Part shown: piece by piece, positions 10,165 to 28,285 of the stretch
Position numbering within the stretch: position 1 is the stretch's first letter
Layout: every line of letters starts with the position of its first letter
Assembly (NCBI GenBank): GCA_050173015.1
Contig: JBFXLE010000009.1
Coordinates: 98,913 to 162,912, forward strand
From: Calditrichaceae bacterium
GTDB taxonomy: Bacteria > Calditrichota > Calditrichia > Calditrichales > JBFXGD01
Length of the DNA stretch: 64,000 nucleotides
Reading direction: 5' to 3'
Position numbers and translations under genes: made by a program
Notes under the pieces: model-generated
The model's input: only the letters and a program-made list of their open reading frames with translations
Told to the model about the DNA's origin: nothing
The model's database searches: none

Positions 10165-10174
10165 AAAAGCCAGT

Positions 10175-11340: not shown

Positions 11341-11669
11341 CCAAGGCTAAAAAATAGAAACAAAAAGAATAAAATATTTGCCAAAAGGATGAAAATAGAA
11401 CGCCGCCTATGCGGCGTTATTGTTTTGCGACGCGGTTGCTTGCGCAGGGTACGGATTTAAGATATATTCAGGAGTAGTTATGTCATATTAGTCCCGGGAC
11501 GACTGAACTGCACACGTCTCAAATAAGTCAATTGATTGAATAAGGAATTCTGTTGATGATATTTTTGAAAGGGATTAGTTAATCGTAAAAAAAATATATA
11601 AACAATTGTTCATATACCGCTGATTTGGGTGGATAAGAACAATAACATATACACGCACGTTAGGTTGCA
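11341..11669 (+). repeat. Scaffold repeat copy 2: leader, integrase vestige, hairpin, GTT core
   Basis: Starts immediately after the attC-3 core. It translates as TPPMRRYCFATRLLAQGTDLRYIQE*. It carries the hairpin AACGCCGC-ctat-GCGGCGTT followed by attgtttt, and ends GTTAGGT at 11659, 25 bp before the next ATG. Confidence 0.85.
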
Positions 11670-11683
11670 TTAAAAAAGAAACC

Positions 11684-12268
11684 ATGAAACTATATCACAG
11701 ATACAACATAAAGAGAAAACAAGAACATTTATTTTTGGAGTTTATCTTGAATAATATTCCAGGAATAAATTATTTAAAAGAGAATTATCGTCTTACAGAA
11801 AATGAATATGATTCATCAATTGAGATAAAACCCATAATTGATTCATTAAAAAATGACACTTGGTTACCAAAAAAGCGTAAACAAAATTGCATTGACATTT
11901 TACAGGACATTAAACTTAATCATGACAAGGTCGTAGTATTTGAATCGGTTAATAAAATATCATTTGATTTCACTATTAAAATAGATAGTGACTTGTTTTT
12001 CTTTGAATTACACGAAGACCAACACAAGAAGTTAAAAGTAAATAGACAGTCAAAAATATTTGATATCCAAGGAAATGAAATTTTTGTTCCTCGTTATTTA
12101 CAAAGATTATTAAAGGATATTTGGCGCTGGGAGAATCTTGACAACTACAAGATAATTTGGGCTGACTGGTTTATTTCATCATCAAATAAACTTTCTAACT
12201 TGTTGGAAAAAGGAAAAATCGAATACGGAATAGATAATACATTTCAATTTAAAAACTTAGGAATATGA
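11684..12268 (+). CDS. Hypothetical protein, possibly a DUF559/Vsr-like (PD-(D/E)xK-fold) endonuclease
   Basis: 194 aa. SFDFTIKIDSDLFFFELHEDQHKK followed by RYLQRLLKDIWRWENL loosely resembles the DF...(hydrophobic)E.DG..H...D..R..L pattern of DUF559. This is weak, by-eye evidence only. Confidence 0.3.
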   Translation: MKLYHRYNIKRKQEHLFLEFILNNIPGINYLKENYRLTENEYDSSIEIKPIIDSLKNDTWLPKKRKQNCIDILQDIKLNHDKVVVFESVNKISFDFTIKIDSDLFFFELHEDQHKKLKVNRQSKIFDIQGNEIFVPRYLQRLLKDIWRWENLDNYKIIWADWFISSSNKLSNLLEKGKIEYGIDNTFQFKNLGI

Positions 12269-12717
12269 ATATTGAAGAATTGGAACAAAAGATTGCGAAA
12301 CTTAGAAACGAAATAAAAAAGGATACTCTAGAACTTGAGAATGTTCCCGAAAGATTTATTTCAGTAATCAAAGGAGAACTGAAAACAAAAGAAGGTAGAT
12401 TAATTGATTTGGAGTTAAAACTGGATGATTTAATTGAAAATGGAATTACTGATAGGCTGCAAAAGCCAATTGATGAATTACAAGAGAAAATTAAATCGTT
12501 TATTCTTGATTATCAATTTCAATATCCACAGGACAAAGAAATGTTTATCTATCAAATTGCATTTGAAGAAAATGATGATGAACTCTTGATAAGCTTAAAA
12601 CCAAAGGAAAAAACCACAAATCGATTGAACAAATACAACAAGGATTTACTAAAAGTTACAATAGAGAACAAAGTAATACAAGAACCAAAAGCTACTGACC
12701 TTTTATTAAGACTTTAA
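12265..12717 (+). CDS. Hypothetical coiled-coil protein
   Basis: 150 aa. ATGA start/stop overlap with the upstream ORF. The N-terminal 80 aa are heptad-like and charged (EELEQKIAKLRNEIKKDTLELEN...). No motif recognised. Confidence 0.5.
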   Translation: MNIEELEQKIAKLRNEIKKDTLELENVPERFISVIKGELKTKEGRLIDLELKLDDLIENGITDRLQKPIDELQEKIKSFILDYQFQYPQDKEMFIYQIAFEENDDELLISLKPKEKTTNRLNKYNKDLLKVTIENKVIQEPKATDLLLRL

Positions 12718-12792
12718 AGCACTTTTCAATTAAAAAAGTTAAATCACTTGACCTTGTATTCTTAGGAGTTCCCTTAATCGCTGAATATAGCC

Positions 12793-12932
12793 ATGACAAA
12801 TATCAATAGAAACAAATATCAAACAACCTTTTCGTTTTGACTCAGATTTCCAAAGATAAAAAGAAAGAAATTCTTGAATATATTGCAGAAAAATTCAATC
12901 AGAGTATAAAAATCGAATTTGTGAAGAAATAA
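12793..12932 (+). pseudogene. Possible frameshifted small ORF at the end of the cassette
   Basis: ATG at 12793 gives MTNINRNKYQTTFSF then a stop. The -1 frame continues LTQISKDKKKEILEYIAEKFNQSIKIEFVKK*. That stop (12930-12932) lies inside the inverse core of attC-4, mirroring the overlap of the 3' end of ORF 10346-11230 with the inverse core of attC-3. Confidence 0.25.
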
Positions 12933-13074
12933 CGCAACCTAGCACGCAATAAAAAACATAGGGCAGAAAGTGCAAAAATTGAACGACATAACATTTAATA
13001 AACGACTTGGTAACTTGACAGGGAAGTGCTTCGAAATGCCAAACGTTTCATATACGTAACCGATAGCGTTCATT
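12928..13074 (+). repeat. attC-like site 4 (subtype X)
   Basis: AATAACgcaacctagcacgcaataaaaaacatagggca pairs imperfectly with tgccaaacgtttcatatacgtaaccgatagcGTTcATT. It shares aataacgc and gaaatgccaaacg with the site at 21575. The core is weaker than in the other sites. Confidence 0.5.
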
Positions 13075-13149
13075 GTAAGGAGACAAAACAACCGTCAGAA
13101 TAATTATGGTATTTTTGCTGCATGAAGAAAAAAGAAAATATGGAAATAG

Positions 13150-13227
13150 CCACCGCACAAATGGCATATTTGGTTTTTGCCGACGCACAGCCAAACGCTG
13201 AAAAAACCAAAAGAGCCATTTCTTGCC
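13150..13227 (+). repeat. IR-B1: structured inverted repeat of about 75 bp forming the 5' leader of hsdR
   Basis: The arms aaatggcatatttggttttt and aaaaaccaaaagagccattt are 17/20 complementary around a spacer of about 23 nt (gccgacgcacagccaaacgctg). It is homologous to 21722-21795 through to the start codon. Confidence 0.75.
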
Positions 13228-13251
13228 ATCTCACGACTGAAAGATAATGAT

Positions 13252-16098
13252 ATGACAACATATAAAAATCAAAATCCTGAACAAATAGCCAGAGACAAAA
13301 TTGACAAAATGTTAATTGAAGCTGGTTGGATTGTTCAATCTAAAAATGAAGTTGACTTGGGTGCAGGCAGAGGTGTTGCGTTGAGAGAATACCAAACGGA
13401 AACAAAATTTGCGGATTATGTGCTGTTTGTTGACAAAAACCCTGTTGGAATTATTGAGGCAAAAAAAGAAGACGAAGGACATAAACTAACCGTAGCGGAA
13501 GACCAAGCCTCTGAATATGCCAAAGCAAAACTAAAATATTTGGATAACGACCCATTGCCTTTTGTTTTTGAGAGTACCGGAACAATAACCCGTTTTAGAG
13601 ATACACGAGACCCAAAACCAAGAGGGCGACATATTTTTTGGTTTTACCGTCCCGAAACATTGGCGGAATGGCTACAAAAAGATAAAAGTTTAAGAGGTAG
13701 ATTATTAGATATTCCGCAATTAAATGAGACTGGGCTTCGCCCTGCTCAAATTAAGGCGATTAATAACCTTGAACAATCTTTTAAAAAGAACAAGCCAAAA
13801 GCTTTAATACAAATGGCTACCGGAGCAGGTAAAACTTTTACTGCCTGTACTTTTGTGTATCGCTTATTGGAACACGCCAAAGCCAAACGGATTTTATTTT
13901 TGGTTGACACCAAAAACTTAGGAGAACAAGCAGAACAGGAGTTTATGGCTTTTCAGCCCAACGACAGCAATCGCAAATTCACAGAATTGTATAATGTACA
14001 GCGTCTTACTTCAAGCTACATAGCAAGCGATAGTCAGGTTTGTATCTCTACCATTCAACGGATGTATGCCATTTTAAAAGGTGAAGAACTAGACGAAGGA
14101 GCCGAAGATACAAACCCGAACGAATCGACCTGGATGGAACAACAGCGAAATAAAAAACAGGCAATGCCTGTGGAATATTCTGCCAAAGTACCCATTGAAC
14201 AATTCGATTTTATTGTAATTGATGAATGCCACCGCTCTATTTACAATCTTTGGAAACAAGTGTTGGATTATTTCGATGCTTTCCTTATCGGCTTAACTGC
14301 CACACCCGATAAGCGAACTTTTGGCTTTTTTGAGGAAAATGTAGTGAGCGAATATACCTATGAAGAATCTGTGTTGGATGGTGTAAATGTTCCTTACGAT
14401 GTGTACAATATTGAAACTGAAATTTCGCAAAAAGGCAGTGTGATAAAAGCAGGTTGGTTTGTGGACAGACGAGATAAGCTCACCCGAAAAACGCGTTGGC
14501 AACAAGAAGATGAAGACACCGAATATTTGAAAAACGATTTGGATAAAAAGGTCGTTAATCCAAGCCAGATACGGAATATTATTCGCCAATACAAAAAAGC
14601 ATTGGAAACCGAAATTTTCCCGAACAGAAAAGACGAAAATGGAGAATACGAAGTTCCTAAAACACTGGTTTTTGCAAAAACTGACAGCCACGCGGATGAT
14701 ATAATCAAAATCATTCGTAAAGAATTTGACGAAGGCGATGATTTCTGCAAAAAACTGACTTATAAAATAAAAGAAGACCCAAAATCGGTGTTAAACCGTT
14801 TTCGGAATTCATATCATCCCCGCATTGCGGTTACGGTAGATATGATTGCAACGGGAACCGATGTAAAACCTTTGGAAGTGTTGTTGTTTATGCGTGATGT
14901 TAAAAGCACCAACTACTTTGAACAAATGAAGGGTAGAGGAACACGCACCATTAACAAAGATGCTTTTCAGGCAAACAACACCAATGTAAAAGGGGCTTGC
15001 AAAACCCATTTTATTATTGTGGATGCAGTTGGCGTAACAAAGTCGAAGAAAACCGACAGCCGGCCTTTGGAACGCAAACCAACTGTAGCCTTAAAAGATT
15101 TATTGGGAGCGGTAACAATGGGAGTTACCGAAGAAGATTTGTTTCTTTCGCTTGCAAATCGTTTGATACGATTAGAAAAAGAAATTACCGACAAGGAAAA
15201 AGATAAATTACTGGAACATTCCAAAGGCAAAAATCTGAAACAAATCAGCAAAGAATTATTATCGGCTTTTGATAAAGATGAAATTGAAAACAGAGCACAG
15301 GAAAAAATTGAAAAATTCTGTAAAGACGCCCTACAGGGCGTCTCTTCTGCTGCCGATTTATCTCCGGCACAAATAGAATCTTTCCGACAGGACGCACAGA
15401 AAGAATTGATTAATACCGCCGCTTCTACTTTTAACGGAAAGCTGAACGATTATATTGAAAAAGTGCGTATGGAACACGAGCAAATTATCGACAGCCACAA
15501 TATCGACACCGTAACAAAATCGGAATGGGACACCGCTTCGGTGGATAAAGCCAAAGAAACTGTAAAAGATTTTAACGAATACCTCGAAGCCAATCAGGAC
15601 GAGATAAAAGCATTGACCATTTTTTACAAACAACCCTACAACCGCCGAAACATTACCTTTAAAATGATTAAAGATGTGTTTGATAAACTGAAATTGGATA
15701 AACCCACCCTTGCCCCCGATTATGTTTGGGCGGCATACAGCCAATTGGAAGAGGTAAAAAGCAAACAACCGATTGACGAACTCACCGCGTTAATTTCGTT
15801 AATTCGCAGGGCTTGCGGAATTGACAGCGAGTTGAAAGCTTTTGATTCCACCATTGACGAAAATTTCAAAAACTGGATTTTCAAACAAAACGCAGGCAAG
15901 CACAACCGCTTTACAACCGAACAAATGGACTGGCTGCGAGAACTGAAAAATCACGTAGTAAATTCGTATCACATAGAAATTGAAGACCTCGATTATACAC
16001 CCTTTGATGAAAAAGGAGGACGTGGCAAAATGTACCAACTCTTTGGTGCCGAAATGAACGATATTATTAATGAACTTAACGAGGTATTAGCAGCATAA
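13252..16098 (+). CDS. hsdR: Type I restriction enzyme R subunit (HsdR), with an EcoEI-type C-terminal domain
   Basis: The N-terminus KIDKMLIEAGWIV...ADYVLFVD..PVGIIEAKKE is the HsdR_N nuclease fold. It also has helicase motif I (MATGAGKTFT), DECH (IVIDECHRS) and TATP, plus a C-terminal tail like EcoEI_R_C. I prefer the ATG at 13252 over the track start at 13177, which lies inside IR-B1. Confidence 0.85.
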   Translation: MTTYKNQNPEQIARDKIDKMLIEAGWIVQSKNEVDLGAGRGVALREYQTETKFADYVLFVDKNPVGIIEAKKEDEGHKLTVAEDQASEYAKAKLKYLDNDPLPFVFESTGTITRFRDTRDPKPRGRHIFWFYRPETLAEWLQKDKSLRGRLLDIPQLNETGLRPAQIKAINNLEQSFKKNKPKALIQMATGAGKTFTACTFVYRLLEHAKAKRILFLVDTKNLGEQAEQEFMAFQPNDSNRKFTELYNVQRLTSSYIASDSQVCISTIQRMYAILKGEELDEGAEDTNPNESTWMEQQRNKKQAMPVEYSAKVPIEQFDFIVIDECHRSIYNLWKQVLDYFDAFLIGLTATPDKRTFGFFEENVVSEYTYEESVLDGVNVPYDVYNIETEISQKGSVIKAGWFVDRRDKLTRKTRWQQEDEDTEYLKNDLDKKVVNPSQIRNIIRQYKKALETEIFPNRKDENGEYEVPKTLVFAKTDSHADDIIKIIRKEFDEGDDFCKKLTYKIKEDPKSVLNRFRNSYHPRIAVTVDMIATGTDVKPLEVLLFMRDVKSTNYFEQMKGRGTRTINKDAFQANNTNVKGACKTHFIIVDAVGVTKSKKTDSRPLERKPTVALKDLLGAVTMGVTEEDLFLSLANRLIRLEKEITDKEKDKLLEHSKGKNLKQISKELLSAFDKDEIENRAQEKIEKFCKDALQGVSSAADLSPAQIESFRQDAQKELINTAASTFNGKLNDYIEKVRMEHEQIIDSHNIDTVTKSEWDTASVDKAKETVKDFNEYLEANQDEIKALTIFYKQPYNRRNITFKMIKDVFDKLKLDKPTLAPDYVWAAYSQLEEVKSKQPIDELTALISLIRRACGIDSELKAFDSTIDENFKNWIFKQNAGKHNRFTTEQMDWLRELKNHVVNSYHIEIEDLDYTPFDEKGGRGKMYQLFGAEMNDIINELNEVLAA

Positions 16099-17636
16099 TG
16101 AGAGAAGATTGGATTGACGTTGAATTAAAAGATGTTTGCCTAAGTTCAAAGGGAAAGAAACCAAGTGTTTTAGAAAAAAATAATTCTGAAACTGCTAATG
16201 TGCCATATATAAATATCAAAGCTTTTGAGAAAGGTATAATAGAAGAATACACTGATGGTGAAAAATGCAATTTATGTGAAGATGGTGACTTGTTAATGGT
16301 TTGGGATGGTGCAAGGGCTGGGCTTACAGGTAAAGCTAAAAAAGGTGCTGTTGGTTCAACACTAATGAGAATTGAAGAAGTAAAAGGTATTGAAAAGGAA
16401 TATTTATATTATTTTCTTTTATCACTTTTTACAAAGATTAATACAAATCCAAGAGGTGTTGGTATTCCACATGTTGAACCACGAATACTATGGTTGTCAA
16501 AAGTATTAATTGTTAGCAGTCCCATCCAACGAGCAATAGTATCCAAAATCGAAGCCCTGTTTTCCGATTTGGACAACGGCATCGCCAATTTAAAAAAAGC
16601 ACAGGAGCAATTAAAAATATACCGTCAAGCGGTTTTGAAAAAGGCCTTTGAGGGCGAACTCACAAAAGAATGGCGTGAAAAGATTGTACAGACGCCCAAT
16701 TTGGGCGTATCAACGCCCCTGCCAACAGCCGAAGAACTGCTAAAACAAATAAAAGAAGAACGCCAAAACCACTACAACCAACAAATTGAAGACTGGAAAA
16801 AAGCGGTTAAGGAATGGGAGAAAAATGGGAAAGTTGGGAAGAAGCCAAGTAAGCCTAAGCAGCAAAAAGAATTGCCACCTTTAAATGAGGAAGAATTGAA
16901 TGAGCTGCCGAAATTGCCAAAGTCAATGGTATGGACACAACTTGGAAATGTGGTTTGGTCTGTAAAAGATGGACCTCATTTTAGCCCTAAATATTCAAAA
17001 ACTGGTATACCCTTTATCTCAGGTGGGAATATTAGACCAGAAAAAATTGACTTTGAAAAAGTAAAATATATTTCAGAAGAGCTTCATAAGGAACTAAGTC
17101 GAAGATGTAAACCACAATTAGATGACATTCTATACACCAAAGGCGGAACAACTGGAATTGCAAAAGTTAATACATATAAATTTGATTTTAATGTTTGGGT
17201 GCATGTAGCAGTATTAAGACCAATCCAAATGATTTTACCATTATATTTACAACATGTTTTAAATTCTTCTCATTGTTATAAACAATCGCAAGAATATACA
17301 CATGGGGTTGGTAATCAAGATTTAGGTTTAACAAGAATGATTTTAATCACACTGCCTATTTGTTGTAAAGAAGAACAAACCCAAATCGTCCAAGAAATAG
17401 AAAGCCGTTTATCGGTTTGCGACAAAGTAGAGCAAAGCATAACCGAAAGCCTTGAAAAAGCCGAAGCCCTTCGCCAAAGCATTCTTAAAAAAGCATTTGA
17501 GGGCAAATTATTAAGCGAAGCTGAAATAGAACAATGCAAAAAGGCAGCCGATTACGAACCTGCGGCAAAATTGTTGGAACGAATAAAACAGGAAAAAATA
17601 AATAAGGATAATAATAAAAAAACAAAATCAAAATAA
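16098..17636 (+). CDS. hsdS: Type I restriction-modification specificity subunit (HsdS)
   Basis: 512 aa. Two target-recognition halves are each followed by the conserved helix LKKAFEG(E/K)L (at about aa 180 and about aa 470). TAATG overlap with hsdR. The central linker carries a REP-like insertion. Confidence 0.85.
   Translation: MREDWIDVELKDVCLSSKGKKPSVLEKNNSETANVPYINIKAFEKGIIEEYTDGEKCNLCEDGDLLMVWDGARAGLTGKAKKGAVGSTLMRIEEVKGIEKEYLYYFLLSLFTKINTNPRGVGIPHVEPRILWLSKVLIVSSPIQRAIVSKIEALFSDLDNGIANLKKAQEQLKIYRQAVLKKAFEGELTKEWREKIVQTPNLGVSTPLPTAEELLKQIKEERQNHYNQQIEDWKKAVKEWEKNGKVGKKPSKPKQQKELPPLNEEELNELPKLPKSMVWTQLGNVVWSVKDGPHFSPKYSKTGIPFISGGNIRPEKIDFEKVKYISEELHKELSRRCKPQLDDILYTKGGTTGIAKVNTYKFDFNVWVHVAVLRPIQMILPLYLQHVLNSSHCYKQSQEYTHGVGNQDLGLTRMILITLPICCKEEQTQIVQEIESRLSVCDKVEQSITESLEKAEALRQSILKKAFEGKLLSEAEIEQCKKAADYEPAAKLLERIKQEKINKDNNKKTKSK
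16691..16708. repeat. REP-like palindrome a (partial), in frame inside hsdS
   Basis: GACGCCCAATTTGGGCGT, translated as QTPNLGVS in the HsdS central linker. Confidence 0.8.
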
Positions 17637-17687
17637 TTGTGAAACGCGTTGGACGTATTTGTCGCATTTGACGCGTTGGACGCATTG

Positions 17688-17716
17688 GTAGAGACGCCCA
17701 ATTTGGGCGTCTCTAC
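17688..17716. repeat. REP-like palindrome b (29 nt)
   Basis: GTAGAGACGCCCAATTTGGGCGTCTCTAC. It lies between hsdS and the RAYT gene, flanked by cgttggacg motifs and gatccc/gacgac short repeats. Confidence 0.85.
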
Positions 17717-17788
17717 GACGACGATCCCTACGATCCCGATCCCGACGACGACAATATCGTTCACGTTCACAATAACGAAAACAAAAAT

Positions 17789-18400
17789 ATGCCCGATAAA
17801 TTTCAAAACAAATACCGCATACCATCGGCACGATTGCAAACATGGGATTATGGAAGCAATGGAACCTATTTTATAACCATTTGCACCCAAAACCGTGAAC
17901 ATTATTTTGGTGAAATTACAGACGGTAATATGATATTATCCGAAATAGGAATTTTGGCGAACAAATATTGGAATGAAATACCAGAACATTTTCCATTTGT
18001 CAATTTGGATGAATTTGTGGTAATGCCCAACCACGTGCATGGGATTATTATCATTGATAAACCCGATGATGGACGGGATGATGGGCGGGACGTTGGACGG
18101 GACGTTGGACGGGACGTAGAGACGCCCAAATTGGGCGTCTCTACCAATACCAATACCAATACCAATACCAATCATCAAACCGCCACGGCATCCGAAAAAT
18201 GGAAACCGGCATCATTGGGGGTAATTATCAACCAATATAAACGAATGGCAACCATTAAATCGCGTAAAATCCACGCTGATTTTGGTTGGCAATCCCGTTT
18301 TTACGACCAGATCATACGAAACAACGAATCGTATGAAAAAATCAGAAATTATATTGTCAACAACCCATTGAAATGGGAAGAAGATAAATTTTACAATTAA
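17789..18400 (+). CDS. IS200/IS605-family Y1 (HUH) transposase of the REP-associated (RAYT) type
   Basis: 203 aa. NKYRIPSARLQTWDYGSNGTYFITICTQNREHYFG, the HUH motif VVMPNHVHGIIII, and the C-terminal catalytic-Tyr region GWQSRFYDQIIRN. It is interrupted in frame by a low-complexity/REP insert of about 35 aa. Confidence 0.8.
   Translation: MPDKFQNKYRIPSARLQTWDYGSNGTYFITICTQNREHYFGEITDGNMILSEIGILANKYWNEIPEHFPFVNLDEFVVMPNHVHGIIIIDKPDDGRDDGRDVGRDVGRDVETPKLGVSTNTNTNTNTNHQTATASEKWKPASLGVIINQYKRMATIKSRKIHADFGWQSRFYDQIIRNNESYEKIRNYIVNNPLKWEEDKFYN
18071..18172 (+). repeat. Composite in-frame insert in the RAYT gene: 12-mer x4, REP hairpin, hexamer x4.7
   Basis: GGACGGGATGAT/GGGCGGGACGTT/GGACGGGACGTT/GGACGGGACGTA at 18071-18118, the REP palindrome at 18116-18144, and (CAATAC)n at 18145-18172. 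Together these translate as GRDDGRDVGRDVGRDVETPKLGVSTNTNTNTNTN. Confidence 0.9.
18116..18144. repeat. REP-like palindrome c (29 nt), in frame inside the RAYT ORF
   Basis: GTAGAGACGCCCAAATTGGGCGTCTCTAC. Identical to palindrome b except for the flipped centre (aaatt versus aattt). Confidence 0.85.
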
Positions 18401-18415
18401 ATTGAAAGAAATAAT

Positions 18416-19936: not shown

Positions 19937-19939
19937 GCC

Positions 19940-20020: not shown

Positions 20021-20081
20021 CACGGACAGAGAATGCAGCAAAAATGAAAGATAAATTGGCTGGAAAAATAAACAACGAAAC

Positions 20082-20540: not shown

Positions 20541-20572
20541 TTAGAAGTAACTTACATAAAAAAGGGTGACTT

Positions 20573-21160
20573 ATGGAAATAAAATTTGATGTGGAAATAC
20601 AAGATGAAGAGAAAGAACTTCTGAAAACGATATTACATTGTGATAATGATGAAGACTTAAATAATCTCTTGAATAAATTAGGCCGTTCTTCATTTGAAGA
20701 TATTAGAAGAATGACAATTGGACAAAAAGTATTTACTCGTGGAAGAGATATTTTAGAATATCGGTTATTTAATTTAATAAAGTTTTTCTTCGATGGGAAA
20801 ATACCAGACGAACAAAAAATATGTGATTTATTCCAAATAACGGCAACTGAAAGTCGAGCATTTATTCGCTCAATAATGTCAAAGTATCAATATGACTTAA
20901 AAGAAACAATATCTTCAACATTAAAAGAACAAGTAGAAAATATTCAAAAAGAAGAAAATGAAGAAGTTTATAAACTTTCCATTCAAAACCAGTATTTCAA
21001 AGATGAATTAAATAGAATATTAGGAACAATAGACACAAGTTTACCGATTATTGAAAAAGAGCGGGGAACTATTTCTACTTATGTAATTCAAACATCATCT
21101 TACCAGAAGTTATGTGAACATTTTGGCATTGAACTAGAAGAAGAAAACAATGAAAACTGA
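20573..21160 (+). CDS. Hypothetical protein (possible HTH-containing regulator or sensor)
   Basis: 195 aa with an acidic N-terminus. The ICDLFQITATESRAFIRSIMSKY segment looks like a helix-turn-helix. No family recognised. Confidence 0.45.
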   Translation: MEIKFDVEIQDEEKELLKTILHCDNDEDLNNLLNKLGRSSFEDIRRMTIGQKVFTRGRDILEYRLFNLIKFFFDGKIPDEQKICDLFQITATESRAFIRSIMSKYQYDLKETISSTLKEQVENIQKEENEEVYKLSIQNQYFKDELNRILGTIDTSLPIIEKERGTISTYVIQTSSYQKLCEHFGIELEEENNEN

Positions 21161-21569
21161 TTTACCTAATTTATTAACTGCATCAAGTATTCTATTGGGA
21201 ATTATTACTGCATTATATGGTTTATTTTTTCCTGCGATTAATTCAATTTTAGTAATAAAATCTAAGCCCCATAAGGTTGATAATAAGAAGGCCTACAGTG
21301 AAAGCAAGGATATTATAAAAGCAAAATATATTCCATTATTAATTGGTTCGTTAGTAATTACATTGATAAACATACCAGAGCTGTTTTCTCAATTAAGAAA
21401 TAGTTTTGTTGCAATAAAAACTAGTGGAATAGAGAACACAACATATGATACGTTAACAGCATCATTTATTGTCGTTTGCCTTTTTATGATTTTCATTACG
21501 ATAATGATGATAGCAACTGGTTTTAAGTTAAGAAAGAAAATAAAAGAACTTAATCCAAATGAACAATAA
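21150..21569 (+). CDS. Small 3-TM membrane protein, unknown function
   Basis: 139 aa. It overlaps the upstream ORF by 11 nt. Hydrophobic helices: SSILLGIITALYGLFFPAI, IPLLIGSLVITLINIP and FIVVCLFMIFITIMMIATGF. Confidence 0.5.
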   Translation: MKTDLPNLLTASSILLGIITALYGLFFPAINSILVIKSKPHKVDNKKAYSESKDIIKAKYIPLLIGSLVITLINIPELFSQLRNSFVAIKTSGIENTTYDTLTASFIVVCLFMIFITIMMIATGFKLRKKIKELNPNEQ

Positions 21570-21574
21570 CGCCA

Positions 21575-21704
21575 CACAACAAAAAATATAGTGCATTTGG
21601 CAGATGGTGCTAAAAATGAAAATGATTGCAATAAATGAACATAGTAGTAAATTGAAAGCTTGGAGCGTTGAAATGCCAAACGCACCATATTCAAACCGTT
21701 GTAT
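21575..21704 (+). repeat. attC-like site 6 (subtype X)
   Basis: CACAACaaaaaatatagtgcatttggca pairs with tgccaaacgcaccatattcaaaccGTTGTAt. It begins 6 nt after the stop of the 139-aa ORF. Confidence 0.6.
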
Positions 21705-21721
21705 GCCATGCTGGAAACGAG

Positions 21722-21795
21722 CTAACCGCACAAATAGCACATTTGGTTATTGCTGACACAAAAGCAAAGGCTGAAAAACTAAAAGAGCTATTTTA
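21722..21795 (+). repeat. IR-B3: structured inverted repeat forming the 5' leader of the STAND gene
   Basis: The arms aaatagcacatttggttatt and aaaaactaaaagagctattt form the repeat. It aligns with IR-B1, including the preceding accgcaca and the following ...acgcaca.agact.aaa...ATG. Confidence 0.7.
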
Positions 21796-21825
21796 TTGTC
21801 AAACGCACATAGACTAAAACTAAAA

Positions 21826-24800
21826 ATGAATGAAGAAATAGTATCAGCAAGTGGAGAAAGAGCAGCAATGGGAGGCTATTTGCCTCAATTTGATGAGTTC
21901 GCTTGGTTTGTCTATTTGAATCTAATAAATAAAAAGCTTGAATGGATACGAATAGCAGACTCCAAGGCTGAAAAACTAGATGATATACAGTATTCTACTC
22001 ATTCAGAAATTCATGCATACCAAGTAAAATGGACTATCGCTGATGCAAATATATCATTTGCAAATTTTACGGATTTGTTTCCTCTTATCACCTCTAGTTG
22101 GAAGAGTTTAAAAACAGCTAATCCTAGCAAAAAAATAATTCCTCATTTAATCACTAACAAACCTATTTCCTCCCACGACAGCTTAAAGGTAGGCGATACA
22201 AAAATCGGTTCATTTCAAGACTTCGTCTCAGAAGTTTGGGTAAAGCTAAAATCAAATCAATCAATTGATGATAAGTGGAAACAAGTTCTTGAGGAACTCA
22301 AAAAGAGTTCAAAACTCAATGATTCTGAATTTGGAGAATTTATCATCTCTTTTGATTTTCAACCAGACTATAAACAAAAACAGTTTAGTATAGGAAATAT
22401 TAAATACTCTAAAGAAGACGAAGACCTTCAACAGATCAGTCGATATATAGTACAAAAAGTTGCTAGCCCGAAAAGAGTCGTTGAATTTACTCGCCAAGAA
22501 ATTATTAAAGAATTAGGTTGGTCTGATAGATTTAAAACAATTTTTAATCACGAGTTAATAGTCGATAGACAAAGATACCAGCCGATTCAATCGACAATTG
22601 ACCTGTTAAATTCAAAGTTAGAGGAGCATAAAAATGGATACCTGTTTTTGCTAGGTGGCCCAGGTTCTGGAAAATCTACCTTATTGAATCAATGGTCAAA
22701 AGGCCTTAAAACACGAATAATACGATACTACGCCTTTGATTTCGTTAATCCATCTTCACACTTAAACTTTTATGAAAGAGGAAATGCTACCCATCTTTTT
22801 TTCGATTTAGTTTTTCAATTAAAGGAAGCTGGAATATATAAAAGAGACATTCTTCCATATAAAGACTTACTTTTTCTAAAAGATGTATTCAATGAGCAAT
22901 TAAGTGCAATTGGAGAGGACTTTGTGACAAATGGTCAATCGACCATAATATTGATTGATGGTCTAGATCATGTTCCTAGGGAATACAAATCAACAACTAA
23001 TAGTTTCCTACGAGAACTTCCTTTACCATCTTCTCTCCCAAACGGGGTCTTCATCATTTTAGGTAGTCAATCTTATGAACTTGAAGACATTCAACAGGAA
23101 ATTAAAACTGAATTTCAGAAAGGAAATAGAACCATTCAAATTGATCCACTTAAAAAGGAGGAAGTATACAAGTACATTGATAATCTTGATACTTCAATTC
23201 AACTTAATGGTTCTCAAAAGCTGCAAATATTTGAGAAATCAGAAGGACACCCGTTATACCTGTCATACTTAATTGAAAAAATCAATAACGCAGATTCTAT
23301 TAACGATACAATCGAATCTTTTGAAGTTATTGATGGTAGTATTGATAATTATTACAAAAAAATATGGGAGCCTATCCAGAAAGAAGATAGCCAAATTCAA
23401 TTCTTAGGTTTAATTGCGAGAATTAATGGTTTGATCAAACTTCAGTTCATTCAGGAATGGGACTTCCAACCGAGTGTTTTAAAGTCCTTTCGTGAAAAGG
23501 CCAGATTTCTGTTTAATGAAACCGAAAAAACTTTGTCTTTCTTTCATAATTCGTTCAAGCAATTCCTTCTTCATCATACCTCTTTAAATTACTTAACAGA
23601 TGAGTTTGATCCGACAATTAACGTCAATTATCATAGTCAACTTACTGATTATTATGTAAAATCAGAGATTGAAAAATCCTGGAAACAGAATCATCACCTA
23701 TTTCAGGCTAAACAATATGATAAGTTTATTTCAGAAGTTACCCCAAATAGTATTACTGAACAGTTACTTAACTTCAGACCAGCAGAAGAAATTAAGCAGG
23801 ATGCAAAATTGGGAGTTGAAATAGCAAGACAGAATAAGGACATTAATACTCTGGTAAGATATCTGTTTTCATTAGCAGAAATTGAAAGAAGATTATTCAA
23901 TATTGATCCCACATCCTTTATAGAAGAACTTTTGTACCTAAATAAATACGACTTAGCAAGGGATTATCTAAGAACTGGCAACACCCTCCATTGTAGCGAA
24001 TCGTACGCATTTAAAGCATGTCGATTGTTTATTGAATCTGGGCACAAATCAGAAGGAGCAACTTTATACAATTTGGCTTATCCAGAAATCATTACAGATT
24101 CCGGGATACATATTGATGATTCTCACAGATATGAAGAAATAAGAGATTCTTTAGAAGAATGGATTTATACTTCTCCCTATTTTGAAGCAACCGAGAATAT
24201 TTTCTCAATAATTGAGAAAATTCAATTCTCAGGTAGCATACGGAAAAACAGGTTTGAAGAAGAAGAATCTGATTTACTTTTAAGGTTACTCTCTAATCTT
24301 GGTTATAGTTTAGTGGATCAAAACAAGTGGGATGATTTTAATAAAGTCATAGAAAAAATAGATTCGAGGTCTTCAAGAGGAAGGAATTCTCTTTTCCAAC
24401 TTATAAAGTACGCTATCGAGCAATGCCTTGACTTAAAAGATAGTAGTCGAGTGAATGAATATCTGTCATTTTTAACCACTCATTTCACAAAAGAGAAGAC
24501 AAAATCCATTGGCAAAATATTCATTGCAGATTTAGTCTATAAAGTCACTAGAGACCTAAATGAAACATATAGTTGGATTAAGGAAGTTGAGCAACCATCT
24601 AATGTGGGTAAAGACCAGCTAGGATATGATGATTCGTTAGACGCCTTTCTTCCATTAATCAAACTTAACAAGTTACTTAACCTATGTGGAAAAGGAGTTT
24701 CGATTACGTCTGCAATTCCATCTGTTGCGAAAGGTACTGATGAAGAAGTTTTAGTGGAGTTTGAACGAATGTTATGTATTACCACTCAAATTCTAGCCGA

Positions 24801-27800
24801 GGGCATTCTTCAAACACCAATGCCAGGTGATCCTATTAAAAGAGTATTTCCAATTGTTCGGTTTTATTACAAAGAAATATCCCACCGAAACAGCTATTGG
24901 TATAAGCTGACACAAGCAAAAGGCCAATATTATGATTTTTTGATTTCGGCGGTGTCTGAATTGGGTACTGAAAAATTAGAATTATTAGGAGATTATTTGT
25001 TCAGTGAGTTTAAGAATATTCCAAAATATTGGAGTACAAGTGTCCAGCGGAAAATCATTAAATCCCTCTTGAATAAAGGGTTTAATGCTAAAAAAGCAGT
25101 AATAAAGTTGAGATCCATAGAGGATTCCATGTTGGAAGGTCACGATATAGATGGCCGTATAACCGAATGCTTGGCCCACTCAAAAGTATGGTTCATTTTA
25201 GGCAAGCTAGATGAAGGTGAAATATGGCTCAAACAGGCTATTCAAGAATCTATTGGAGTAGGATATAGAAAAGATTATCAATTTAGTACATGGATTGAAT
25301 GGTTAAGAAAAATAAACCATAAAGACCCATCAAAAGCTACTGAAAGAATAAAGTGGTTCTTATCTCATTTAAAACATATTAAAGAAACCACGGAGGGAAG
25401 GGCTTATTGGAATGCTTCTGAAGAATTATTAGAAGTCGCATATGAACACAATCTGGAAGATGGCTTAGAGCAGGCTATTTGGCAATTAAAGAACGATCTA
25501 ATAGACTTTAAAGATTCAATTGCTCTTTTCATAAAATATTTTATGATAAAAACAAAAAGTAAAGAAGAGTTCAAAAGTATTGTTCAACTATATAGTGATT
25601 TATATCTGCTTCTTGCTGAATCTGCCAATTCTTCCCTGCTCAAATCTATCTTAGAAAAAGGGCATGAAATTTTAAAAGAAGATTTTTTAGTAGAACATGC
25701 TCAAGCCATTATTTCGGCAATAGAAATTAAAGCTTACGAAGAAACCAGACATTACTTACTATCTGAAATTGATAACTTCTATACATCAAAAGGGCTAAAA
25801 GCAGAAGACTATTATTCACGGTTTAATATACCGGCAAAAAGCGAAAGAAATAGTTCATCAACATCTTCTAACACATTGACTTTAAAGACAGATCATGAAA
25901 AGATTGATGAAAGTGAAGTACTAAAACGAGTTACAAATTTTGAAGATTTCAAAAAAATCATTCAAGAAGAAGATCAGGCAAATTCATTTTTTAATTGGTC
26001 AAAGGTTATAGATAAAATAGCTCCATTATTGTCTTCAAGTCAAATTGAAGAAATCACCAAACTGGCTAGAATAGGAAGGAGAGAGTCAGATTTCTATGCT
26101 AAATTAAGTGAGGCTGCCTTGGAGCTAGAAAACACAGAACTCGCAACTAGTTTAGCCAATAAAAGTATTGAGTTATCGAGCGAATCGGGGTGGGTAAAAT
26201 ATTATGATGGAGGAACAAGAATCAATGCATTTAATGCACTAAAACGAATCAATCCTGCAATATCATCTAATAAGGCATTTGAAGTATTTGCTCATGATAT
26301 AGTAACCAGTAATTATCCAAGTTCATATATCGAACATCTTGAAGACATCGTTCCACTTTTAACAGAAAATTATGTTGAGGAAGAGCTTTGGCATGAAATA
26401 TATGGTTACCTGCAAAGACTGATGTCGAATAGTAAACCGGTTGAGGATTTACCTGTTCTTCCATCATTAAATCGTCCAATCATAGAAACCTTAGTCGATT
26501 ATATGGTGTATTTATCACAGAGTCCCGTCTCAATAATAAAGGAGCAATCTTTACAGCTATTGGCAAAATATATAAATCAAGATAATGACTATGCTTTGAC
26601 TCAATTACTGAATGGACGTTTAGATGATTACTCAAGTATGAACGTGATGATGAAATTAACTGCGTTCAACTCCCCCAAAGTCCATTTGCTTAAATCAAAG
26701 ATCAATAGTTTAGCTATATCAAATGACTATCAATTAAGAGAAAGCTCAAAACAAATACTTTCCTCAATTCAAGAAGAAATTCCAACTCCCAAAAACATCG
26801 AATTATCTAAAGTATACTCTTTCCATATTCCAGAAACTGAAAAACCAGATTTTAGAAAAGAGATTGACCCTTATTTCCCAGAAGTTGATACTAATGACCC
26901 CCGTGATCTGATACGACCATTTGAATTTTTAATCAAAATCTTATCTGAGGAGTCTGGGATTAATGAATCTAACCTTATATATAGAGCCTACTCGATCATG
27001 AAAGAAATTGGTCGAGAGGAGGAATGGTCCGTTGAGTATGAAAAAAAGCTTAGAAATCATTTAGAAGAAATTTACCTAAGATACTCTTACCCTAGACCAA
27101 GGGTAATTGCGGCTCGAAGAGCCATAATGCATGTCACCAATGAATTAATAGATTCTGGAACAATTGATGATGAGCGAATTCAGAAACCTTTTATATCACA
27201 TGATTATGCGGTTCTGTTTTTTAATGAAATAGCAAAACCTGAATTCATTCAAACTATTAAAGAGAGAGATTTTGGAGGAGTTGGCAATGATTGGTTAGAT
27301 CGAATAGGTGAATCAGAAAGATTAAACGAATCAATATTAGACTATAATGATAACTTCAAGATTATTGCAGAATATAATCAAGTTAAAAATTTAGATTGGG
27401 GTTCTCCTACTGAAGAATACATGTACCAAATTGCGGTTAATGAGGAGTTGGATGAAGAAGATAATTACATTTTTGGCTCTGTTTTTCACCAATTAAGCAG
27501 TAACTATCATGATTTGAGAAGTGGTGGACATTTTATTGTTGTAGTCAGGGATCATAGATTTGACCAATTTGATCTGAAATCTAAGTGGATTGCAATTAAC
27601 CCTGTTTTGGCTAGATACTTAGGATGGGAGCCTGAAACAACCAAATTATTTGCTTGGAAAAACTCGCAAGGTGAATTGATGGCGGAATCAATTTATTGGT
27701 CAAATGGAAATATTAACATGACACCTCGTAAGGATGGAGAAGTCGGGGAAGGGTGGTTTGTTATTGTTTCCAAAGATGGATTAGAGAAGATAAAATCTAT

Positions 27801-27897
27801 CGAGAAGAAATTGTTTCTGCAAAAGAAATTAACAAGATCTAAATTTGAAGATTCAGTTCTAATGAATAATCAAGCAATTAGTGTGACAAAAATTTGA
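21826..27897 (+). CDS. Giant STAND-type P-loop NTPase with an N-terminal Cap4/DUF4297-like PD-(D/E)xK nuclease and a long helical-repeat C-terminus (Avs-like antiviral ATPase candidate)
   Basis: The N-terminus SGERAAMGGYLPQFDEFAW...AEKLDDIQYS..EIHAYQVKW matches the DUF4297 pattern (GG..GF.YQ ... E..DD ... QVK). Walker A is FLLGGPGSGKSTLLNQW and Walker B is TIILIDGLDHV, followed by about 1500 aa of helical sequence. I prefer the ATG at 21826 over the TTG at 21796. Confidence 0.65.
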   Translation: MNEEIVSASGERAAMGGYLPQFDEFAWFVYLNLINKKLEWIRIADSKAEKLDDIQYSTHSEIHAYQVKWTIADANISFANFTDLFPLITSSWKSLKTANPSKKIIPHLITNKPISSHDSLKVGDTKIGSFQDFVSEVWVKLKSNQSIDDKWKQVLEELKKSSKLNDSEFGEFIISFDFQPDYKQKQFSIGNIKYSKEDEDLQQISRYIVQKVASPKRVVEFTRQEIIKELGWSDRFKTIFNHELIVDRQRYQPIQSTIDLLNSKLEEHKNGYLFLLGGPGSGKSTLLNQWSKGLKTRIIRYYAFDFVNPSSHLNFYERGNATHLFFDLVFQLKEAGIYKRDILPYKDLLFLKDVFNEQLSAIGEDFVTNGQSTIILIDGLDHVPREYKSTTNSFLRELPLPSSLPNGVFIILGSQSYELEDIQQEIKTEFQKGNRTIQIDPLKKEEVYKYIDNLDTSIQLNGSQKLQIFEKSEGHPLYLSYLIEKINNADSINDTIESFEVIDGSIDNYYKKIWEPIQKEDSQIQFLGLIARINGLIKLQFIQEWDFQPSVLKSFREKARFLFNETEKTLSFFHNSFKQFLLHHTSLNYLTDEFDPTINVNYHSQLTDYYVKSEIEKSWKQNHHLFQAKQYDKFISEVTPNSITEQLLNFRPAEEIKQDAKLGVEIARQNKDINTLVRYLFSLAEIERRLFNIDPTSFIEELLYLNKYDLARDYLRTGNTLHCSESYAFKACRLFIESGHKSEGATLYNLAYPEIITDSGIHIDDSHRYEEIRDSLEEWIYTSPYFEATENIFSIIEKIQFSGSIRKNRFEEEESDLLLRLLSNLGYSLVDQNKWDDFNKVIEKIDSRSSRGRNSLFQLIKYAIEQCLDLKDSSRVNEYLSFLTTHFTKEKTKSIGKIFIADLVYKVTRDLNETYSWIKEVEQPSNVGKDQLGYDDSLDAFLPLIKLNKLLNLCGKGVSITSAIPSVAKGTDEEVLVEFERMLCITTQILAEGILQTPMPGDPIKRVFPIVRFYYKEISHRNSYWYKLTQAKGQYYDFLISAVSELGTEKLELLGDYLFSEFKNIPKYWSTSVQRKIIKSLLNKGFNAKKAVIKLRSIEDSMLEGHDIDGRITECLAHSKVWFILGKLDEGEIWLKQAIQESIGVGYRKDYQFSTWIEWLRKINHKDPSKATERIKWFLSHLKHIKETTEGRAYWNASEELLEVAYEHNLEDGLEQAIWQLKNDLIDFKDSIALFIKYFMIKTKSKEEFKSIVQLYSDLYLLLAESANSSLLKSILEKGHEILKEDFLVEHAQAIISAIEIKAYEETRHYLLSEIDNFYTSKGLKAEDYYSRFNIPAKSERNSSSTSSNTLTLKTDHEKIDESEVLKRVTNFEDFKKIIQEEDQANSFFNWSKVIDKIAPLLSSSQIEEITKLARIGRRESDFYAKLSEAALELENTELATSLANKSIELSSESGWVKYYDGGTRINAFNALKRINPAISSNKAFEVFAHDIVTSNYPSSYIEHLEDIVPLLTENYVEEELWHEIYGYLQRLMSNSKPVEDLPVLPSLNRPIIETLVDYMVYLSQSPVSIIKEQSLQLLAKYINQDNDYALTQLLNGRLDDYSSMNVMMKLTAFNSPKVHLLKSKINSLAISNDYQLRESSKQILSSIQEEIPTPKNIELSKVYSFHIPETEKPDFRKEIDPYFPEVDTNDPRDLIRPFEFLIKILSEESGINESNLIYRAYSIMKEIGREEEWSVEYEKKLRNHLEEIYLRYSYPRPRVIAARRAIMHVTNELIDSGTIDDERIQKPFISHDYAVLFFNEIAKPEFIQTIKERDFGGVGNDWLDRIGESERLNESILDYNDNFKIIAEYNQVKNLDWGSPTEEYMYQIAVNEELDEEDNYIFGSVFHQLSSNYHDLRSGGHFIVVVRDHRFDQFDLKSKWIAINPVLARYLGWEPETTKLFAWKNSQGELMAESIYWSNGNINMTPRKDGEVGEGWFVIVSKDGLEKIKSIEKKLFLQKKLTRSKFEDSVLMNNQAISVTKI

Positions 27898-27904
27898 CCA
27901 TGAA

Positions 27905-27990
27905 TCCAAACGCTCGCATCCATACACATTGGCAAATCGCACAGGACAGCCACACCAGCCAAAATTTGCCAAAGAGTATGGCTGCACCAA
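27905..27990 (+). repeat. IR-B4: structured inverted repeat immediately downstream of the STAND gene
   Basis: The arms catacacattggcaaat and atttgccaaagagtatg form the repeat. Relative to IR-B2, both arms changed together (tttgcaatt/aattgcaaa became ttggcaaat/atttgccaa). Confidence 0.75.
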
Positions 27991-28023
27991 CGCCGCCAGA
28001 AAAGAAAATGAAAAAGCACGGGC

Positions 28024-28145
28024 ATACAACAATGTGTATAATTCATAAGGGTTTCAGCGGATTGCAAGCCGTATCACCCGCATCAAATTCGGGTGGTAAC
28101 TTGATAAGTAAAAAGTTCGCAATCCCTTACGAATCATAGTTAGCT
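28024..28145 (+). repeat. attC-like site 7 (subtype Y), last in the array
   Basis: catACAACaatgtgtataattcataaggg pairs with cccttacgaatcataGTTAGCt. The centre (gggtttcagcgg...ggtaacttgataag) is homologous to attC-3. Confidence 0.6.
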
Positions 28146-28285
28146 CCAAGGCTAAAAAATAGAAACAAAAAGAATAAAATGTTTGCCAAAAGAATAGAAA
28201 TAAAAGCCACCGCACAGTAAGCACATTTGCAATTCGCGCGAGCCGGCGCGAAAACCAAAAATTGCAAAAGATTGCAATCTTGCCG
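28146..28285 (+). repeat. Terminal scaffold leader plus IR-B5 (no cargo)
   Basis: ccaaggctaaaaaatagaaacaaaaagaataaaatgtttgccaaaag matches the leader of scaffold copies 2 and 3. It is followed not by the integrase vestige but by gccaccgcaca..cacatttgcaattcgcgcgagccggcgcgaaaaccaaaaattgcaaaag..cttgcc. That sequence combines the left edge of IR-B1/B3 with the body of IR-B2. Confidence 0.7.

Follow-up and report, generated by a model that had tools for sequence, protein, structure and literature searches.

Paired hairpin elements frame long defence cassettes in a probable integron-like array of a Calditrichaceae bacterium

The window analysed here is a stretch of 64,000 nt from a Calditrichaceae bacterium (GenBank assembly GCA_050173015.1, contig JBFXLE010000009.1, positions 98,913 to 162,912 of the forward strand). 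Between ~6.8 and 28.3 kb it holds an array of cassettes, all in the same orientation; seven attC-type hairpins lie in it, and a recombinase vestige joined to an attI-like site occurs three times. The array is flanked by a Peptidase_M49 gene on the left (5065-6786) and a VWA gene on the right (28660-30057). Two of its cassettes, one with a type I restriction-modification (RM) system and one with an Avs-like STAND protein, are each bracketed by two copies of a conserved hairpin that we call IR-B. We consider it likely that the locus is integron-like, an array of cassettes left with a dead recombinase of its own, and we propose, more tentatively, that IR-B is a putative DNA-level accessory recombination element.

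Results

Layout and cargo of the array

The first-pass annotation of this DNA had described two consecutive modules of 8-9 kb, A and B, that share a non-coding scaffold and differ in cargo. Both modules exist, but the array begins at ~6.8 kb rather than at 11.3 kb, and three cassettes, the Thoeris cassette among them, precede module A (Table 1). Each module resolves into three cassettes: a pseudo-cassette of 325 nt, a small two-gene cassette, and a defence cassette of 6.4-7.1 kb. The repeated non-coding elements occur in the order first described, far beyond chance. Comparison of the window with itself, by self-BLAST and a repeat search, aligns 11281-11675 with 20150-20546 (85% over 398 nt), and further matches join 13152-13221 to 21725-21793 (83% identity) and 19956-20004 to 28222-28271 (88%). 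Both 11227-11400 and 20135-20269 match 28045-28205, a third copy of attC plus leader, and a third copy of a 270-nt repeat lies at 6951-7220, just 5' of the Thoeris pair, with 91% identity to copy A. The expected homology of the scaffold holds for the vestige unit, the pseudo-cassettes of A and B being 86% identical, whereas the remaining parts are related only at 52-69% (attC pairs 52-67%, IR-B pairs 54-69%), which by these comparisons looks like the general family level of the array.

The signature domains of Thoeris, type I RM and Avs are all present, those of the RM system lying in HsdR (ResIII, EcoEI_R_C), HsdS (Methylase_S) and HsdM (N6_Mtase). A REP-associated tyrosine transposase (RAYT) gene sits between hsdS and hsdM (NCBIfam REP_Tyr_transpos, 2.5e-16). 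Its repetitive extragenic palindromes (REPs), GTAGAGACGCCCAATTTGGGCGTCTCTAC, form a perfect inverted pair of 34 nt, and a third, diverged copy lies inside hsdS (16686-16726, 17684-17717, 18115-18148). BLASTP finds no similarity between the two-gene cargos of modules A and B, as the first-pass annotation had noted, and we rejected the idea that they are diverged homologues.

Table 1. Features of the array in window coordinates. Limits of cassettes 1 to 9 were set at G/TT crossovers, the slash marking the crossover point.
Feature	Position	Strand	Remarks
Recombinase vestige 1	6800-7130	+	Last ~110 codons of the C-terminus, interrupted by stops and a frameshift; stop codon 7128-7130; immediately 3' of Peptidase_M49 gene
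attI-like site 1	7131-7217	+	Crossover G7211/T7212; homology of copies ends at ACGTT
Cassette 1	7212-8936	+	Thoeris
Thoeris thsB and thsA (Macro type)	7343-8751	+	Cargo of cassette 1; Pfam ThsB_TIR, ThsA_Macro; PADLOC ThsB1 1e-73, ThsA1 2e-39
attC 1	8809-8945	+	R' GTTATGC; crossover G8936/T8937; model R2 96.9 bits, E 2e-18
Cassette 2	8937-10299	+	285-aa and 112-aa open reading frames (ORFs)
285-aa and 112-aa ORFs	8968-10164	+	Cargo of cassette 2; weak match to Stk2 N-terminus
attC 2	10172-10308	+	Crossover G10299/T10300; R2 102 bits
Cassette 3	10300-11334	+	294-aa ORF
294-aa ORF	10346-11230	+	Cargo of cassette 3; no family assigned (Pfam, PADLOC, NCBIfam)
attC 3, Y-type	11203-11343	+	Crossover G11334/T11335; R2 90.6 bits; bottom strand -24.2 kcal/mol
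Cassette 4 (pseudo-cassette A)	11335-11659	+	Leader 11335-11398, vestige 11399-~11578, attI-like site to G11659/T11660
Cassette 5	11660-13062	+	194-aa and 150-aa ORFs
Two-gene cargo A	11684-12717	+	194 aa and 150 aa; no family assigned
attC X_A	12934-13071	+	R2 52.7 bits, E 4e-9; outside training set
Cassette 6	13063-20203	+	Type I RM
IR-B upstream of RM cassette	13129-13241	+	GG-type hairpin; ends 9 nt before hsdR ATG 13250; model R1 78.9 bits, E 3e-19
RM cargo	13250-19936	+	hsdR, hsdS 16098-17636, RAYT 17789-18400, hsdM 18416-19936
IR-B downstream of RM cassette	19920-20030	+	GC-type hairpin; 5' flank overlaps hsdM stop; R1 99.6 bits, E 5e-25
attC Y_A	20078-20212	+	Crossover G20203/T20204; R2 56.8 bits, E 6e-10; outside training set
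Cassette 7 (pseudo-cassette B)	20204-20530	+	Leader, vestige, attI-like site to G20530/T20531
Cassette 8	20531-21698	+	195-aa and 139-aa ORFs
Two-gene cargo B	20573-21569	+	195 aa and 139 aa; second resembles membrane protein; no family assigned
attC X_B	21571-21707	+	Crossover G21698/T21699; R2 104.3 bits
Cassette 9	21699-28139	+	Avs-like STAND
IR-B upstream of STAND cassette	21702-21815	+	R1 53.1 bits, E 4e-12
STAND NTPase, 2023 aa, Avs1b-like	21826-27897	+	Pfam NACHT; PADLOC Avs1b 2.4e-39
IR-B downstream of STAND cassette	27889-28002	+	Overlaps stop codon; R1 67.9 bits, E 3e-16
attC Y_B	28021-28148	+	Crossover G28139/T28140; R2 52.3 bits, E 5e-9; outside training set
Unit 10 (from 28140), array end	28140-28298	+	Last unit, apparently truncated; third leader copy 28140-28205 and IR-B without cargo
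Terminal IR-B	28186-28298	+	Without cargo; R1 71 bits, E 4e-17

attC sites

Four sites (8812-8942, 10175-10305, 11206-11340 and 21574-21704) were recognized by eye, by DNA folding and with an R''/R' finder as canonical imperfect hairpins of 131-135 nt with the form R''...AAC / GTT...R'. In all four the bottom strand is the more stable, as in attC 1 (-20.3 kcal/mol against -16.1 for the top strand). The covariance model R2 was built from 46 aligned attC sites, these four and 42 from other loci; X_A, Y_A and Y_B were left out. RNAalifold resolves the alignment into an R box, a spacer and a three-part stem. Compensatory changes occur in 15 of 20 pairs, AAC and GTT do not vary, and two A.C mismatches conserved on the top strand would pair as G.T on the bottom one. 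Run on the full 64 kb, R2 returns exactly seven sites, all on the plus strand and all between 8.8 and 28.2 kb, with none elsewhere. The attC sites X and Y of the first-pass annotation are borne out; the model recovers X_A, Y_A and Y_B without having been trained on them. The R2 sites thus combine what is expected of attC: an imperfect palindrome, a conserved structure and a favoured bottom strand.

A metagenome scan with the leader sequence returned one related lineage, represented by two overlapping loci of a single genome (L128 and L129), and one chance match (L130). The R' box of X_A (13062-13068) reads GATAGCG where L129 has GTTAGCG (~6676), a change that probably inactivated the site.

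In several Flavobacteriaceae loci a second R2 match follows the first by ~130 nt (L011 2934-3064, L112 3959-4089, L032 1967-2098, L013 5596-5721, and also L023, L061 and L092). These second matches contain CGCCAAATTTTTAATTTGG, which resembles CCGCCAATTTGGGCGG in the loop of the window's attI-like hairpin, and each may be a tandem site or an ORF-less cassette.

Recombinase vestiges and attI-like sites

The 270-nt repeat reads as the C-terminus of a tyrosine recombinase interrupted by stops and a frameshift: TPPTRRSCFATRLLAQGRDLRYIQE, a stop, LG, then HVSNKSID and IRNSVDDIFEKD before a final stop. The integrase vestige that had been claimed for both modules is confirmed by tblastn with the relative P0002, which matches at 6871-7065, 11400-11516 and 20269-20397 with 63-68% identity over 39-65 aa. 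Copy 1 gives the longest match (68% over 65 aa), and its translation contains GGKYSATSIANILKKSAQKAGITKTITPPTRRSCFATRLLAQGRDLRYIQE followed by a stop and LG. The best NCBIfam matches of the vestige are XerD/XerA and integron integrase.

The ~85 nt that follow the vestige stop codon carry an inverted repeat of their own. Homology among the three window copies and the copy in L129 stops exactly at ACG/TT, and a different cassette follows in each of the four cases, with the crossover boxes GTTATGG (7211), GTTAGGT (11659), GTTGTGT (20530) and, in L129, GTTAGCG. Such a shared end before four different cassettes reads as the signature of an attI site, and in all four copies the site adjoins the 3' end of the recombinase, where the cassettes begin. 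Pseudo-cassettes A and B and the equivalent unit of L128/L129 each have a different attC in front. Pseudo-cassette B is 95% identical to the L128/L129 unit and pseudo-cassette A only 87%, while the junction between leader and vestige is identical in A and B. The vestige-attI unit would have spread as a cassette because an attC crossover bounds it on one side and attI could act as the 3' site on the other. At homologous positions in the three vestige units (7112, 11560 and 20431), ~100 nt before the attI crossover, lies the motif TAnnTTTG, which we take to be the Bacteroidetes -7 promoter consensus and which has a background frequency of 1 per 1730 nt. The motif suggests that the unit may carry a cassette promoter inside the 3' end of the dead gene.

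All 120 listed relatives of the vestige (P0001-P0120) are fragments of 66-162 aa, and several begin at the same internal MLIYSAGLRRSEL. In the three contexts examined (L004, L005 and L007), recombinase fragments head arrays of small genes in the same orientation, and the attI-like region of the window is ~70% conserved 3' of the truncated integrases of L004 and L005. Truncated 3' ends of the recombinase seem to persist widely, unless the retrieval favours short proteins. The 153-aa fragment of L004 (2392-2853) heads its array right beside a core GTPase gene.

Locus L020, of Flavobacteriaceae bacterium NBU2973, holds an intact relative of 376 aa. Its gene is oriented divergently from an array of cassettes, one of them framed, and in NCBIfam it best matches the integron integrase family TIGR02249 (1.6e-57); the closest solved structure is that of IntI4 (PDB 2A3V, 9e-38). 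The match to TIGR02249 is split in two and leaves out profile positions 177-255, a part that only 22 residues of the protein span. Pfam assigns Phage_int_SAM_4 and Phage_integrase, preceded by ~105 unannotated residues at the N-terminus. In the three window units and in L004, L005, L007, L023, L041 and L112, the recombinase reads toward the cassettes with attI at its 3' end; the divergent arrangement occurs within the same family in L020 and L102.

Structure of IR-B

IR-B is ~110 nt long and has a 16-bp, two-part stem in an alignment of 114 copies. Standard pairs occupy 93.9% of the stem cells, and 10 of the 16 pairs show compensatory changes, some in up to four pair types, at columns that the search pattern had left free. 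None of 500 shuffles reached the stem score, and when the partner was shifted by 1-3 columns, only 32-54% of cells paired. The upstream and downstream elements named in the first-pass annotation are recovered by the covariance model R1: the window has exactly five copies, each on the plus strand and within the array (E 4e-12 to 5e-25); 0.01 chance matches were expected in the motif scan.

The motif GCCAACGC occurs three times in the element, once in the loop and once on either side of the stem. These GCCAAC(GC) motifs resemble attC R'' boxes, some of which read TGCCAAC. The downstream subtype carries a nearly invariant GCCATACACATTTGCAATTCGC, the upstream subtype has a TTTGGTTTTT/AAAAACCAAA stem with a variable outer stem, and a third class joins an upstream-type flank to a GC-type stem. 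Among the non-Watson-Crick pairs, GT/TG number 18 and AC/CA 14; this lack of a G.U excess argues, weakly, for a structure at the DNA level rather than the RNA level.

Three other identities for IR-B were considered and rejected. It is not decayed integrase coding sequence, despite a frame that resembles PH..TFAIR, as it is a covarying hairpin with its own phylum-wide family. Nor is it a divergent attC, since its AAC boxes have no R' (GTT) partner and R2 does not match it. Homology to the attI hairpin was dismissed as well, the sole R1 match on the third attI-like site (20436-20540) being at chance level (13.6 bits, E 0.32). The hairpin of that site and IR-B both have a loop containing GCCAA. 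At the gathering threshold, Rfam returned from the whole window only a tRNA gene (53886-53958, minus strand), which is distant from the array and has no recombinase adjoining it; a permissive scan of 19900-20300 gave only matches with E >=0.4, none of them on IR-B. The core sequence of IR-B had 0 matches in the searchable literature. The mechanically called ORFs of hsdR and STAND begin at TTG codons inside the upstream IR-B copies (13177 and 21796); the true starts are likely the ATGs at 13250 and 21826, just past the hairpins.

IR-B frames long cassettes

A pattern derived from the window copies of IR-B matched more than 119 stretches in a search of contigs with one genome per species. Among the matches listed, nearly all are from Flavobacteriaceae, Bacteroidales, other Bacteroidota or Chlorobiota, and ~8 are obvious chance matches in other phyla. 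Complete Bacteroidota genomes with IR-B include OZ251501.1, OY970287.1, OZ245940.1 and Polaribacter ponticola. With R1, 148 copies were located in 100 loci. The copies within any one locus all have the same orientation, which is shared by all 184 of the attC sites compared with them. In ~40 mapped loci the same order recurs: attC, ~33-40 nt, upstream IR-B, 11-60 nt, an operon, downstream IR-B, ~50 nt, attC. The framed operons hold one to five genes in the same orientation, and the downstream IR-B abuts or overlaps the last stop codon. Downstream copies have an attC within 150 nt on the 3' side in 53 of 66 cases (median 51 nt) and on the 5' side in none; for the other copies, an attC lies within 150 nt on the 5' side in 26 of 66 (median 33 nt). 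The frame of a long cassette is thus leader plus IR-B on the 5' side and IR-B, a spacer of ~50 nt and attC on the 3' side. Of 44 occurrences of the motif of this spacer, 41 follow a detected IR-B and one a copy that has diverged; the remaining two are chance matches within coding sequence.

Framed cassettes are long. Intervals between attC sites have a median of 1035 nt when no IR-B intervenes (n=81) and of 4446 nt when two copies do (n=18, range 2625-7138), the two window cassettes being the longest. As the first-pass annotation had expected, the elements flank other genes in many genomes, and most of the sampled cargo matches restriction or defence families. Restriction cargo includes an MvaI/BcnI restriction endonuclease, type I and type III subunits, many type IIG proteins of ~1000 aa and a type ISP enzyme; other defence cargo includes a match to the DrmE C-terminal domain, Hhe/PDC-S37, IetA, GajB and RhuM. 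MerA, an ADP-ribosylglycohydrolase and a RecG-like helicase were also found.

IR-B does not accompany every array. The RefSeq-complete megaplasmid pPP2 of Persicobacter psychrovividus (NZ_AP025294.1; L131/L132) has 32 matches to the attC model and no IR-B in the 28 kb scanned. Because attC is present there without IR-B, we regard IR-B as an optional feature of long cassettes. The pPP2 array extends over more than 70 kb of small genes, apparently in the same orientation and annotated only as hypothetical proteins. When plasmids were searched with a query of IR-B plus attC, only the attC part matched, in Persicobacter megaplasmids.

Framed cassettes or IR-B copies were also seen on contigs of unexpected assignment. 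A contig classed as viral (L127, IMGVR_UViG_3300027852_000170) carries at 7563-10114 an upstream IR-B, genes of 373 and 387 aa, and a downstream IR-B. True IR-B copies lie on short contigs of metagenome-assembled genomes labelled Gammaproteobacteria, Synergistaceae, Clostridia and Cognatiyoonia (L055, L077, L079 and L042); these are probably binning errors, the alternative being horizontal spread.

Cassette movement in a related genome

The RM cassette recurs in L129, where it is 97.6% identical from window position 13061 onward and stands behind a different cassette, which encodes proteins of 166 aa and 226 aa and has a Y-type attC. Shared sequence starts at the R' box of attC, and the GATAGCG (T>A) change goes with the RM cassette (L129 ~8063). 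The cassette keeps its frames in this other context and the breakpoint falls at that box, so frames move together with their cassettes. In L128/L129 the leader-vestige-attI unit is followed directly by a large framed cassette. This cassette has a leader of a second type, an upstream IR-B with another covarying stem, genes for a helix-turn-helix protein and for proteins of 692 and 959 aa, and then a downstream IR-B, the same spacer motif and attC. The order of vestige, small cassette and large cassette is not kept in L129. These breakpoints indicate that cassettes move as units at the G/TT boxes of attC and attI. Inside the RM cassette, L129 jumps from window position 14216 to 17636, beside the REPs, which suggests a REP-associated deletion.

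Discussion

Relation to known arrays

In the terms of IntegronFinder the array is a cluster of attC sites lacking an integron integrase (CALIN), with its seven attC sites at 8.8-28.2 kb and only pseudogene fragments of a recombinase. The locus class is integron-like or CALIN rather than proven integron (see Smyshlyaev et al.). Like sedentary chromosomal integrons and CALINs, such as the Vibrio cholerae superintegron with its repeats (VCR), it has promoter-poor cassettes in the same orientation, palindromes with AAC/GTT boxes and a G/TT crossover. Its attC sites resemble one another as those of a superintegron do, and its integrase is decayed as in a CALIN. Unlike integrons, the family has an intact recombinase relative with an extra N-terminal region of ~105 aa and apparently without the IntI insertion, and the long cassettes of the window have an additional conserved pair of hairpins. 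Boucher et al. are said to have described, in 2007, integrons of the Treponema denticola type, with intI in the same orientation as the cassettes. The window resembles that type in that the recombinase gene points to the cassettes with attI after its 3' end, and differs in that only 3' remnants are present, recurring as pseudo-cassettes bounded by G/TT. With a related recombinase acting in trans at attC and attI, cassettes would be excised and inserted.

Several points weigh against these readings. No intact recombinase lies in the 64-kb window, which holds only vestiges. The L020 relative scores 195 bits on TIGR02249, below the cutoff of 265; it appears, from its alignment to the profile, to lack the IntI-specific insertion, and its action on folded attC is putative. 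An intI with that insertion, as in a complete integron, was therefore found neither in the window nor in L020. Three of the attC sites are degenerate: Y_A, Y_B and X_A reach 52-57 bits, the other four 90-104, and the R' box of X_A is mutated. As for IR-B, the sample was seeded from one window-derived pattern that fixes some columns, the counts of its association with attC are limited by the sensitivity of nhmmer, and the same anatomy would also fit an RNA-level or insulating role.

The role of IR-B

We tentatively favour the accessory recombination role for IR-B because of its DNA-level look, its R''-like motifs, its restriction to long cassettes and its predicted position around attC after excision. 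Were a cassette excised as a circle, the two copies would stand on either side of attC, as arms do in an att site, and could help long cassettes recombine. Lambda-like arm-type att sites, and the DR1 and DR2 repeats of attI1, are accessory sites near the crossover core. IR-B resembles them in having short repeated motifs tens of bases on either side of the core, as the order in a circular cassette would be IR-B, attC, IR-B; this is an analogy only, and unlike duplex arm sites IR-B is itself a covarying hairpin.

The closest competitor, which we judge possible if rather doubtful, is a role in RNA, with hairpins in the untranslated regions that would process, stabilise or insulate transcripts of long and potentially toxic cassettes in an array transcribed by read-through. 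The upstream hairpin lies 11-60 nt before the start codon, too close for a promoter to fit in between, and the downstream hairpin adjoins the stop. IR-B is always on the coding strand, and its cargo consists mostly of RM and other defence systems, for which autonomous control is needed. Such a role fits less well with the pairing, in which G.U is no commoner than A.C, and with the downstream-subtype stems, which are nearly invariant across genera instead of freely covarying. The hairpin has no U-tract on its 3' side, and three copies per element of a motif like the attC R'' box would not be expected. A promoter in the leader or IR-B was also considered and rejected; inspection by eye revealed no canonical Bacteroidetes promoter (TTTG...TAnnTTTG) in either.

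The first-pass annotation had proposed a fixed scaffold with two slots per module, the terminal copy (28186-28298) being a hybrid that looks like an empty slot; in the form weighed here, cargo circles would dock by IR-B x IR-B recombination. The copies around each cargo are indeed direct repeats, the topology needed for excision and insertion, conservation begins and ends tightly at the stop and start codons of the cargo, and the terminal copy does join an upstream-type flank to a GC-type hairpin 88% identical to the RM downstream copy. This model is nonetheless improbable. Among ~160 copies, no lone IR-B lies between two attC sites, and solo copies, seen in the window and in L126, L100, L086 and L010, appear to occur only at array ends. 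Neither ORF-less docking cassettes nor spacers without IR-B were found in the loci scanned. The supposed hybrid belongs to a natural class that precedes cargo in L099, L110 and L069, and upstream and downstream copies each form a subtype found across the phylum, with the outer stem intact, and are not reciprocal hybrids. The 3' flank of the solo copy in the window resembles that of the upstream copy of the RM cassette. The terminal IR-B is accordingly best read as the 5' frame left by a last cassette that was truncated. When the RM cassette moved, its leader and IR-B went with it, and the breakpoint lies at the attC R' box and not at IR-B. What survives of the defence-exchange locus first envisaged is the exchange of unrelated cargo between conserved recombination elements; the units exchanged are cassettes that carry their own frames, module order varies, and the breakpoints in L128/L129 lie at G/TT.

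Still less probable is a segmental duplication of one 8-9 kb module with later replacement of both cargos, the other origin suggested in the first-pass annotation. The element types do occur twice in the same order, and the leader-vestige-attI units share 86% identity and their leader/vestige junction, but a recent duplication is unlikely because most of the shared parts are only 52-69% identical. Their divergences are discordant, unit B is closer to a unit with different neighbours in another genome than to unit A, and the order of vestige, small and large cassette is broken in L129.

Least probable of all, and very unlikely, is that a single-strand transposon of the IS200/IS605 or REP/RAYT style, mobilised in trans into short ORF-less cassettes, has the IR-B copies as its left and right ends: two conserved hairpin end subtypes in direct orientation on one strand, a GCCAAC motif beside the hairpins and a RAYT gene inside the RM cassette would suit it, but that gene, the only Y1 gene found, has its own unrelated palindromes, ORF maps show no Y1 or HUH gene regularly with framed cassettes, no empty target was seen, the spacer motif essentially always follows IR-B, and the RM cassette moved together with its leader from a breakpoint at an attC box. 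IR-B does resemble REPs, bacterial interspersed mosaic elements and IS200/IS605 ends as a short, conserved, structured DNA repeat that is intergenic and near stop codons. Unlike REPs and mosaic elements, it brackets each long cassette with a copy upstream and a copy downstream, is always oriented with attC, and is not scattered, its five copies in the window all lying inside the array.

Significance

That integron cassettes carry defence genes is already known, and the defence systems that they encode have been described as compact, with long systems absent (Darracq et al., 10.1101/2024.07.02.601686). The 6-7 kb cassettes of the window differ: one holds an entire type I RM system, the other an Avs-like protein. 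Bacteroidetes have been reported to be almost without integrons (IntegronFinder 2.0, 10.1101/2022.02.28.482270), and our search for literature on integrons in Flavobacteriia and Bacteroidota found nothing specific. The framing of long cassettes by IR-B is apparently undescribed so far.

It is conceivable, though on balance we doubt it, that all of this belongs to a widespread undescribed integron-like system of Bacteroidota and Chlorobiota, with an IntI-related recombinase that has an N-terminal domain and no insertion, attC sites of ~131 nt, and IR-B arms bearing the triple GCCAACGC. Integron cassettes are thought to be limited in size, as attC x attC recombination falls with cassette length. 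If the system is real, the IR-B arms would make multigene systems of 3-7 kb (type I, III and IIG RM, Avs, Gabija, Hhe and parts of DISARM) mobile cassettes, past the size limit of classical integrons.

These findings indicate that attC-type arrays are common in Bacteroidota and that complete multigene defence systems of 2.6-7 kb occur in them as hairpin-bracketed cassettes. If IR-B aids recombination, it would account for the shuffling and spread of large defence systems in Bacteroidota, and the intervals from upstream to downstream IR-B would offer a sequence handle for new defence genes. If IR-B instead controls expression, it would be a new cis-regulatory module for defence genes. Either way, its role can be tested in cultured Flavobacteriaceae.

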